This document shows positions 1 through 3,000 of a stretch of 12,488 bases of DNA, piece after piece; position 1 is the stretch's first letter, and the number at the start of each line of letters is the position of its first letter. This stretch comes from a virus (lineage: Duplodnaviria; Heunggongvirae; Uroviricota; Caudoviricetes). The DNA is taken from the IMG/VR virus record IMGVR_UViG_2698536449_000008; one strand, written 5' to 3'. Made by a program: the position numbers.

Positions 1-3000
1 TGGAGGTCCAGTCCGTCACCGACGGCGTGAAGGTGAAAGTGAGCCGGGTTCCTGACGGCGTTGCAGAATACAGCGTGTGGGGGCTGAAGCTGCCGACGCT
101 GCGCCAGCGTCTGTTCCGCTGCGTGAGTATCCGTGAGAACGACGACGGCACGTATGCCATCACCGCCGTGCAGCATGTGCCGGAAAAAGAGGCCATCGTG
201 GATAACGGGGCACACTTTGACGGTGACCGGCGCGGCACGGTGAATGGTGTCACGCCGCCAGCGGTGCAGCATCTGACCGCCGAAGTCACCGCAGACAGCG
301 GGGAATATCAGGTGCTGGCGCGATGGGACACGCCGAAGGTGGTGAAGGGTGTGAGCTTCCTGCTTCGCCTGACCGTGGCAGCGGACGACGGCAGTGAGCG
401 GCTGGTCAGCACGGCCCGGACGACGGAAACCACTTACCGCTTCACACAACTGGCGCTGGGGAACTACAGGCTGACAGTCCGGGCAGTAAATGCGTGGGGG
501 CAGCAGGGCGATCCGGCGTCGGTATCGTTCCGGATTGCGGCACCGGCAGCGCCTGTCACTATTGAACTGATACCGGGGTATTTTCAGATAACGGCGGTCC
601 CGAAANGAATCCGGTCAGCGTGGAGGTCCAGTCCGTCACCGACGGCGTGAAGGTAAAAGTGAGCCGTGTTCCTGACGGTGTTGCTGAATACAGCGTGTGG
701 GGGCTGAAGCTGCCGACGCTGCGCCAGCGTCTGTTCCGCTGCGTGAGTATCCGTGAGAACGACGACGGCACGTATGCCATCACCGCCGTGCAGCATGTGC
801 CGGAAAAAGAAGCCATCGTGGATAACGGGGCGCACTTTGACGGCGACCAGAGCGGCACGGTGAATGGTGTCACGCCGCCAGCGGTGCAGCATCTGACCGC
901 CGAAGTCACCGCAGACAGCGGGGAATATCAGGTGCTGGCGCGATGGGACACGCCGAAGGTGGTGAAGGGCGTGAGCTTCCTGCTCCGTCTGACCGTAACA
1001 GCGGATGACGGCAGTGAGCGGCTGGTCAGCACAGCCAGGACGACGGAAACCACATACCGCTTCAGGCAGCTGGCGCTGGGGAATTACAGTCTGACAGTCC
1101 GGGCGGTAAATGCCCGGGGGCAGCAGGGCGATCCGGCGTCGGTATCGTTCCGGATTGCCGCACCGGCAGCGCTGTCGCGGATTGAGCTGACGCCGGGCTA
1201 TTTTCANNNNNNNNNNNNNNNGCTGGCGCTGGGGAACTACAGGCTGACAGTCCGGGCAGTAAATGCGTGGGGGCAGCAGGGCGATCCGGCGTCGGTATCG
1301 TTCCGGATTGCCGCACCGGCAGCGCCTGTCACTATTGAACTGATACCGGGGTATTTTCAGATAACGGCGGTCCCGAAACTGGCTGTATATGACCCGACGG
1401 TGCAGTTTGAGTTCTGGTTTTCGGAAAAGCGGATTGCGGATATCAGGCAGGTTGAAACCACAGCACGCTATCTTGGCACGGCGCTGTACTGGATAGCCGC
1501 CAGTATCAATATCAGGCCGGGCCATGATTATTATTTTTACGTTCGCAGTGTGAACACCGTTGGCAAATCGGCATTTGTGGAGGCCATCGGTCGGGCGAGC
1601 GATGATGCAGAAGGTTATCTGAATTTTTATAAAGGGTTGATCAATAAAACGCATCTCGGCAAGGAGTTGTGGACGCAGATTGATAACGGTCAGCTTGCGC
1701 CGGACCTGACTGAAATCAGGACGTCCATTACGAATGTCAGCAATGAAATCACGCAAACCGTCAATAAAAAACTGGAAAATCAGAGTGCTGCAATCCAGCA
1801 GATACAGAAAGTTCAGGTTGATACAAATAATAACCTGAACAGCATGTGGGCTGTGAAGCTGCAACAGATGAAGGACGGACGCCTTTATATTGCGGGTATC
1901 GGTGCCGGTATTGAGAATACGCCAGCAGGAATGCAGAGTCAGGTGCTGCTGGCGGCAGACAGGATTGCGATGATTAATCCTGCGAATGGCAACACAAAGC
2001 CGATGTTTGTTGGTCAGGGCGATCAGATATTCATGAACGACGTGTTCCTGAAATGCCTGACGGCTCCGACCATTACCAGCGGCGGTAATCCTCCGGCATT
2101 TTCCCTGACACCTGGCGGACGGCTGACGGCGAAAAATGCCGATATCAGCGGTAACGTGAACGCGAACTCCGGGACGCTCAACAACGTCACGATTAATAAG
2201 AACTGTCGGGTTCTGGGAAAATTGTCCGCGAACCAGATTGAAGGCGATCTCGTTAAAACAGTGGGCAAACCTTTCCCACGGGACTCCCGGGCACCGGAGA
2301 GGTGGCCATCAGGGACCATTACCGTCAGGGTTTATGACGATCAGCCGTTTGATCGGCAAATTGTTATTCCCGCGGTGGCGTTTCGCGGTGCTAAACATGA
2401 GCGGAAGAATAACAATATTTATTCGTCATGCCGCCTGATAGTGAAGAAAAACGGTGCTGAAATTTATAACCGAACGACCCTGGATAATACGCTGATATAT
2501 ACGGGTGTTATTGATATGCCTGCCGGTCACGGTCACATGACGCTGGAGTTTTCTGTATCGGCATGGCTGGTAAATGGCTGGTATCCCACAGCAAGTATCA
2601 GCGATTTGCTGGTTGTGGTGATGAAGAAAGCCACTGCAGGCATCACGATTAGCTGAATTTTATAACCCAGATACGGGCACCAGAAATGGTGCCTTTTTTA
2701 TTGCAGAAAAGCGAGAGGTAATTATGCGTAAAGTTTGTGCAGCCATTTTGTCCGCAGCCATTTGCCTGGCCGTATCCGGTGCGCCTGCATGGGCGTCTGA
2801 ACATCAGTCCACGCTGAGCGCCGGGTATCTTCAGACCCATACTGATATGCCAGGCAGCGATGACCTGAAGGGCATTAACGTGAAATACCGTTATGAGTTT
2901 ACGGACACGCTGGGGCTGATTACGTCATTCAGTTATGCCAACGCTGAAGATGAGCAAAAAACGCATTACAGCGATACCCGCTGGCATGAGGATTCCGTGC

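Follow-up and report, generated by a model that had tools for sequence, protein, structure and literature searches.

The modularity of the C-terminal receptor-binding domain of gpJ, the product of the tail gene J, has been known since the host-range hybrids of phages lambda and 434. The gpJ of lambda combines hub domains and a pair of FNIII domains with a helical shaft, a straight fibre built as a beta-prism, and an Ig-like domain for receptor binding. Four bottom loops of this last domain (L1-L4) insert into the LamB trimer; a widening is relayed up the fibre, and the tail opens (PMC11101478). Replacement of the lambda J by that of phage 434 transferred the dependence on OmpC (PMC3509688, PMC11101478), and the fusion of natural gpJ C-termini onto lambda J retargeted the particles from LamB to OmpC, with the chimeras A8 and 1A2 accepting different OmpC alleles (bioRxiv 10.1101/2022.09.30.509847). 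According to the title of PDB entry 9wcb, the A8 gpJ chimera was solved bound to OmpC. The domain of A8 and of phage phi330 uses OmpC (PMC12502783; bioRxiv 10.1101/2022.09.30.509847), and a prediction places the phi330 hairpin ENFNSNNQQS inside the OmpC barrel (PMC12502783). The native receptor of phage 21 is LamB, and this phage gained OmpC by one mutation and can reach OmpC or OmpF by point mutations (PMC11336670); for this reason it was rejected as a candidate native OmpC user. Here we describe the 3' parts of two J genes, copy 1 and copy 2, which lie in a 12,488-nucleotide (nt) stretch of DNA from a tailed virus (Caudoviricetes; IMG/VR record IMGVR_UViG_2698536449_000008), the whole of which is referred to as the window.

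It is highly probable that the two J 3' parts are alleles of the lambdoid J gene that have a shaft of the phage-21/Sakai type in common and differ in the cassette encoding the receptor-binding domain, which is of the VT1-Sakai type in copy 1 and of the phage-434 type in copy 2. The alleles would belong to separate prophages, or to what remains of them, in a single Escherichia coli/Shigella-like genome. Both copies display the lambda-type order of the families PF24421, PF24489, PF09327, and PF12421, which corresponds to Ig/FNIII domains followed by Phage_Tail_Tip and the receptor-binding domain. Copy 1 can be divided into the end of Ig_J, Ig_J_second, Phage_Tail_Tip (helical shaft and straight fibre), and the receptor-binding domain, after which it reaches the stop codon. 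It matches the gpJ structures of lambda and A8 with E-values of 1e-183 to 1e-180, and copy 2 matches lambda gpJ with an E-value of 5e-181 in an alignment that covers lambda residues 674-1131.

The divergence of the two copies is confined to a block with defined edges (Table 1). The initial annotation had placed the ends of the reading frames at positions 2656 and 7312, which is correct, as are the peptide endings that it gave for both copies. It had also described a discrete breakpoint at 2207/6845, and pairwise nucleotide alignment bears this out: identity falls from ~78-98% to ~45-68% near 2194/6832. In sliding comparisons, the copies are 78-100% identical before this point, except for a few patches of 68-78%, remain at ~44-68% up to the stop codons, and return to 90-100% from 2676/7335. 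A maximum-likelihood fit with two breakpoints delimits a block in which 43.5% of the positions differ between the copies, in comparison to 9.8% outside (log-likelihood ratio 131; the highest value among 200 column permutations was 11). The annotated and the fitted left edge are no more than 15 nt apart. The upstream parts had been called near-identical, which is an overstatement of their mean nucleotide identity of ~90%. One 45-nt stretch within the block reaches 76% identity between the copies.

The block has a sharp right edge as well, which the initial annotation did not contain. It is located 35-38 nt beyond the stop codons, where the 3' arm of the terminator stem ends, and the sequence that follows, with the U run, the lom ribosome-binding site, and the 5' end of lom, shows 100% identity between the copies. 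The terminator hairpins at 2675-2694 and 7335-7352 have the same position and shape and differ in the sequence of the stem; the annotation of phage 434 has a terminator at this place too. The left edge corresponds approximately to residues 977-982 of lambda gpJ, which form the junction of the fibre and the domain. The cassette of ~500 base pairs (bp) comprises the last layer of the straight fibre, the receptor-binding domain, the stop codon, and the terminator stem.

The two ends had previously been regarded as unrelated, which does not hold. The C-terminal 149 and 155 residues align over their full length with 39% identity (E 5e-31), the PHROG families that they match are the same, and both contain the full-length Ig_GpJ_C domain (PF12421) with scores of 126.4 and 90.7 bits against a gathering cut-off of 26.2. 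An alignment of seven sequences (both copies, 434, VT1-Sakai, phage 21, phi330, and lambda) contains an invariant core with the motifs GT-TV, DD-FDRQ, NG, DMP-G-G, and KK-GI, with insertions and deletions (indels) in three or four loop segments only. Both copies align by sequence through the domain to the solved gpJ structures. Judged from these alignments, the two J ends are diverged alleles of one domain. A structure of the copy 1 end was modelled from an alignment of the two window sequences only and has a predicted local distance difference test (pLDDT) score of 57, which is too weak for conclusions at the level of loops. The four top matches of this model in a Foldseek search, to which the sequence term of the program contributes, are the gpJ fibres 9wca, 9wcb, 8xck, and 8xcj.

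The domains of the two copies belong to different types. At the amino-acid level, the domain of copy 1 is 93% identical to that of the VT1-Sakai (Sp15) J, 65% to phage 21, 62% to the A8 chimera and phi330, and 40% each to lambda and phage 434. The corresponding values for copy 2 are 39%, 42%, 43%, 38%, and 96%, the last over 156 residues, so that near-identity to the 434 type is found in copy 2 and not in copy 1. Neither copy is of the lambda LamB-binding type as defined by similarity to gpJ residues 982-1132, and the assignment of the copy 1 C-terminus to the lambda/LamB type was rejected in view of its much higher identity to VT1-Sakai. The nucleotide sequence of the copy 1 cassette is 91-92% identical to those of VT1-Sakai, PPompW, and several Stx2a prophages, and that of the copy 2 domain is 95.5% identical to 434 over 468 nt and 96.8% to Stx2a_WGPS6. 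Among the domains in phage records, 54 are 90-95% identical to copy 1, three 80-90%, 46 60-80%, and 140 less than 60%. Such discrete classes of identity are as expected of allelic cassette types and not of a continuum.

Both cassette types are widespread. At a nucleotide identity of at least 80%, the copy 1 type is present in 62% of complete E. coli genomes (3378 of 5426), at up to nine places in a genome (median two), which makes the VT1-Sakai-type domain the commonest J end in E. coli. The copy 2 type was found in 2113 of the same 5426 genomes, and the presence of both types within one genome is routine. The cassette of copy 1 itself occurs at 99.8% nucleotide identity in eight complete E. 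coli genomes, and that of copy 2 at 99.3% in complete E. coli genomes.

That the receptor-binding module was exchanged by recombination, as had been proposed from the breakpoint, is supported by similarities to third genomes that are incongruent on the two sides of the boundary. Over the upstream 330 residues, both copies are phage-21/Sakai-like (89-95% identity) and share ~70% identity with lambda and 434; copy 2 is 95% identical to phage 21 and 72% to 434, and the identity between lambda and 434 is 96%. In sliding nucleotide comparisons, copy 2 is 92-100% identical to phage 21 up to ~6690 and 43-63% thereafter, whereas its identity to 434 is 23-70% at 6259-6618 and 85-100% from 6648 through the domain and lom. 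The similarities cross over near 6650-6700, and copy 2 is thus a mosaic that is phage-21-like up to ~6690 and 434-like from ~6650. One 434-type domain occurs on two shaft types, and one shaft type occurs with at least three domain types. Recombination is needed to explain this, because divergence in place cannot give the same domain on two shafts and the same shaft with several domains. The cassette is flanked upstream by the conserved coding region of the lower straight fibre (…NADISG-VNAN-GTLNNVT…) and downstream by the conserved terminator U run, the lom ribosome-binding site, and the 5' end of lom. By the route that we infer, these flanks would provide the homology arms at which lambdoid phages that reside in, or infect, the same cell exchange their cassettes.

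The same comparisons bear on an explanation without exchange, in which the C-terminal domain evolves faster in place under a receptor arms race while its flanks stay conserved. The domains can indeed be aligned and have a conserved core in common, the identity of the copies sags gradually over the 150 nt before the left edge, and receptor-binding loops are known targets of selection (PMC11336670). Faster evolution in place is nevertheless very improbable, given that the 95-100% nucleotide identity of copy 2 and 434 in the domain stands next to 23-70% at 6259-6618, that copy 2 and phage 21 combine near-identical shafts with very different domains, that the domain identities fall into discrete classes, and that identity returns abruptly to 100% past the terminator stem. 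It is still harder to credit that a junction is an assembly chimera produced from collapsed, repeated prophage sequence in a short-read draft, a possibility raised in the initial annotation. The patchwork of the window would invite such a suspicion, as it contains four runs of N, at least three J-derived fragments, two contigs that overlap with 99.4% identity, and a contig that ends at the end of an insertion sequence (IS). However, both edges of both cassettes are located inside N-free contigs, and both junctions are contiguous in complete E. coli genomes: positions 1222-3698 (2477 nt) match complete chromosomes in a single piece with 98.7-98.9% identity, and positions 6400-7600 (1201 nt) do so with 98.1% identity and are covered to at least 80% in 1835 genomes. 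Furthermore, the strains that best match 1222-3698 also carry the copy 1 cassette at 99.8%.

Several observations weigh against the interpretation of the copies as cassette-exchanged alleles, or limit its detail. The left edge is somewhat blurred: identity is already down to 78-86% over the preceding 150 nt, which prevents an exact placement of the cross-over. The sites of cross-over vary among lineages, with the divergence of copy 2 from phage 21 setting in at ~6690. The N-free contigs cover only the last ~40% of each J gene, and the structure model of copy 1 is of low confidence. The receptor assignments of both copies are ones that we infer from sequence similarity. The domain of copy 2 differs from that of 434 by 6-7 substitutions, several of which map to the long first loop and the last loop, and these could alter which OmpC alleles are recognised.

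In the virion, the domain would form a trimer, the bottom loops of which would enter a trimeric outer-membrane porin, and binding would open the tail as in the lambda-LamB and A8-OmpC pairs. The indels that distinguish copy 1 from copy 2 are located in these loop regions. The initial annotation took the divergent ends to imply different receptors, which they do not establish: the domains of 434 and A8/phi330 are 43% identical, yet both use OmpC, and divergence alone is therefore uninformative about the receptor. The near-identity of copy 2 to 434 predicts OmpC as its receptor, which it very probably uses. The receptor of copy 1 is most likely a porin such as OmpC or LamB, as its nearest characterised relatives are split between OmpC (A8/phi330, 62%) and LamB (phage 21, 65%). 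Literature searches found no receptor assigned by test to a VT1-Sakai-type J domain.

That both cassettes target OmpC, and differ in the mode of binding or in the preferred OmpC alleles and not by a switch of receptor, has in our estimate a little less than an even chance. Three domain types that are only 42-43% identical (434 and A8/phi330) all use OmpC (PMC3509688; PMC12502783; bioRxiv 10.1101/2022.09.30.509847), the closest solved relative of copy 1 is the OmpC-binding A8 gpJ, and A8 and 1A2 are precedents for domains that differ in the OmpC alleles they accept (bioRxiv 10.1101/2022.09.30.509847). However, copy 1 is equally close, at 65%, to phage 21 with its native receptor LamB (PMC11336670), and the OmpC-contact loops of the A8/phi330 type, in phi330 E953-S962 (ENFNSNNQQS) and A1015-P1020 (ANNWTP) as defined in PMC12502783, are not conserved in copy 1. 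At these positions copy 1 contains ERKNN-I, which is five residues shorter than the phi330 hairpin, and LVNGWYP, and its first loop is four residues longer. What roughly remains beside OmpC for both copies would fall to a different receptor for copy 1, for which LamB is the leading alternative. It is unlikely that the VT1-Sakai-type domain of copy 1 recognises a receptor other than LamB, OmpC, OmpF, and FhuA, one not yet assigned to a lambda-type J, even though indels set its receptor-facing loops apart from those of both LamB- and OmpC-using relatives.

The window is a scaffold and not a continuous sequence. Runs of N at 606, 1207-1221, 5829-5831, and 11870-12136 split it into contigs F1 (1-605), F2 (607-1206), F3 (1222-5828), and F4 (5832-11869) and a tail. 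F3 contains the 3' part of J, lom, and the first 104 codons of stf, followed by an IS21-family element; F4 contains the 3' part of J, a shortened lom, a full-length stf, and tfa. The upstream parts of J are present as the separate fragments F1 and F2, and the window does not reach the K and I genes. Over its last 156 nt (450-605), F1 is 99.4% identical to the head of F3 (1223-1378) and thus continues J copy 1 in the upstream direction. F2 is 94.4% identical to F1, both being versions of one internal region of J; because its tail fits neither the head of F3 (92.0% identity) nor that of F4 (94.6%), F2 is probably derived from a third J copy. This suggests a source genome with at least three J genes and unresolved repeats.

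Table 1. Positions and supporting evidence of the features of the window
Feature	Position	Strand	Evidence and remarks
J gene fragment, contig F1, Ig/FNIII region	1..605	+	Overlap with head of F3; single N at 606
J gene fragment, contig F2, same J region as F1	607..1206	+	Comparison with F1, F3, and F4; N run 1207-1221
J copy 1, 3' 477 codons and stop	1222..2656	+	Pfam PF24421, PF24489, PF09327, PF12421; PDB matches
Divergent cassette, copy 1 (VT1-Sakai type)	2192..2691	+	Change-point fit
PF12421 Ig_GpJ_C receptor-binding domain, copy 1	2264..2653	+	Residues 348-477, profile 2-135/135, 126.4 bits
Intrinsic terminator after J copy 1	2675..2700	+	GGGCACCA/UGGUGCCU stem and U run; -14.2 kcal/mol, z -3.0
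lom copy 1, intact, 199 residues	2724..3323	+	PF06316 Ail_Lom, positions 1-199/199, E 4e-129
stf copy 1 (side tail fibre), 5' end only	3387..3698	+	PF08400 phage_tail_N, positions 1-104/134
IS21-family insertion sequence, 2130 bp	3699..5828	+	Pfam rve / Mu-transpos_C_2, IstB_IS21
istA	3800-4972	+	Within IS21-family element
istB	4969-5769	+	Within IS21-family element
J copy 2, 3' 492 codons, domain order as copy 1	5832..7312	+	Pfam; PDB
Divergent cassette, copy 2 (phage 434 type)	6830..7350	+	Change-point fit
PF12421 Ig_GpJ_C receptor-binding domain, copy 2	6899..7306	+	Residues 356-491, profile 1-134/135, 90.7 bits
Intrinsic terminator after J copy 2	7335..7358	+	GGCGUCA/UGACGCC stem and U run; -16.3 kcal/mol, z -4.8
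lom copy 2, shortened, 160 residues	7383..7865	+	PF06316, positions 1-159/199
stf copy 2 (side tail fibre), full length	7964..11047	+	PF08400, PF03406, PF07484
tfa, tail fibre assembly protein	11047..11628	+	PF02413 Caudo_TAP

The features follow the lambda-type order J, terminator, lom, stf, and tfa on the same strand. The region of copy 1 is interrupted within stf, the reading frame of which is broken after ~104 codons by the IS end TGTCAGCGCC, and its contig is without tfa. The IS21-family element has imperfect terminal inverted repeats, with the ends TGTCAGCGCC… and …GGCGTTGACA. An exact search of genome contigs for the 40 nt at the junction of stf and the IS returned no match. The right end of the element coincides with the end of F3 and is followed by NNN at 5829-5831; the adjacency of the two copies is therefore only a scaffold join. 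The 4.6-kilobase spacing between them is not a demonstrated genomic arrangement, and the initial picture of two prophages side by side is not shown by the window. In the region of copy 2, lom lacks ~80 internal nt that correspond to ~3198-3277 of copy 1, and this gap, flanked by two CTGGCG repeats, could reflect either a genuine deletion by slippage or a mistake in the assembly. The last 31 nt of the window, 12458-12488 (GGTGATGCTGCCAACTTACTGATTTAGTGTA), resemble the terminal inverted repeat of IS1, and if they are one, this would fit an IS-rich source similar to Shigella or enteroinvasive E. coli.

Two further observations concern the shaft and straight fibre of J. A second mosaic module is located within J at 6259-6618, in the helical-shaft and upper straight-fibre region, where the lambda/434 type and the phage-21/Sakai type are 23-70% identical in nucleotide sequence; both copies of the window carry the segment of the phage-21/Sakai type. 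In a conserved segment of the straight fibre, around positions 2047-2055 of the window, copy 1 encodes FLKCLTAPT in place of the FLKRL of copy 2, lambda, and phi330, and VT1-Sakai has a tyrosine at the differing residue; the position is outside the excerpts of 434 and phage 21 that were compared.

The cassettes, their junctions, and their modularity are already documented and widespread, and the locus represents the ordinary mixing and matching of lambdoid prophages. The modularity of the gpJ end has by now been described structurally for the lambda-LamB and A8-OmpC pairs and has been used to retarget lambda-derived delivery particles. The importance of the locus beyond annotation is small. 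The J ends of such sequences can be typed, here as the Sakai type (copy 1) and the 434 type (copy 2), with a confident guess of the receptor, OmpC, for the 434 type only. The divergence of J ends should not be taken as a difference in receptor, and the apparent tandem of two tail-fibre regions is to be read as a product of scaffolding. A small gap is that the most prevalent type of J end in E. coli is without an experimentally assigned receptor in the literature that was searched.

Among the known systems, copy 1 is most similar to the J of the VT1-Sakai (Sp15) prophage of E. coli O157:H7 Sakai (AP000400), with 93% amino-acid and 91.4% nucleotide identity in the domain and 89% amino-acid identity in the shaft. 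The gene order J-lom-stf of copy 1 is found in VT1-Sakai, PPompW, and the long-tailed Stx2a prophages. VT1-Sakai differs from copy 1 in small patches of low identity (2356-2416 and the 5' part of lom), and its J is annotated as a gene split by mutation. The OmpC-dependent gpJ of the A8 chimera (PDB 9wca and 9wcb, the latter with OmpC of EDL933) and of the Stx2a phage phi330 (PV189401) belongs to the same domain family and fold. A8 gpJ is the best solved-structure match of copy 1 (sequence E 1e-183; Foldseek E 1e-13 with the model of pLDDT 57); the strands and the C-terminal motif are in common, whereas the identity of the domains is limited to 62%, and the first loop and the hairpin differ in length by the residues given above. 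Phage 21 (OL657228) has a J shaft that is 90-95% identical in amino-acid sequence to both copies, whose own shafts are ~90% identical to each other in nucleotide sequence, and, of the natural relatives with a characterised receptor, it is the nearest to copy 1 in the domain; nevertheless, its domain type differs from those of both copies. The gpJ of lambda (PDB 8xcj and 8xck, with LamB) has the same architecture of FNIII domains, helical shaft, straight fibre, and Ig-like domain, but its domain is 38-40% identical to that of either copy, and its shaft is of the other allelic type (~70% amino-acid identity). Copy 2 resembles the J of phage 434 (OL657226, CPT_434_21), which has the classical h434 host range and the receptor OmpC. 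The two differ in the helical-shaft and upper-fibre segment, where copy 2 is of the phage-21 type, whereas the last 156 residues are 96% identical, the lower straight fibre and lom are 85-100% identical in nucleotide sequence, and the position of the terminator is shared.

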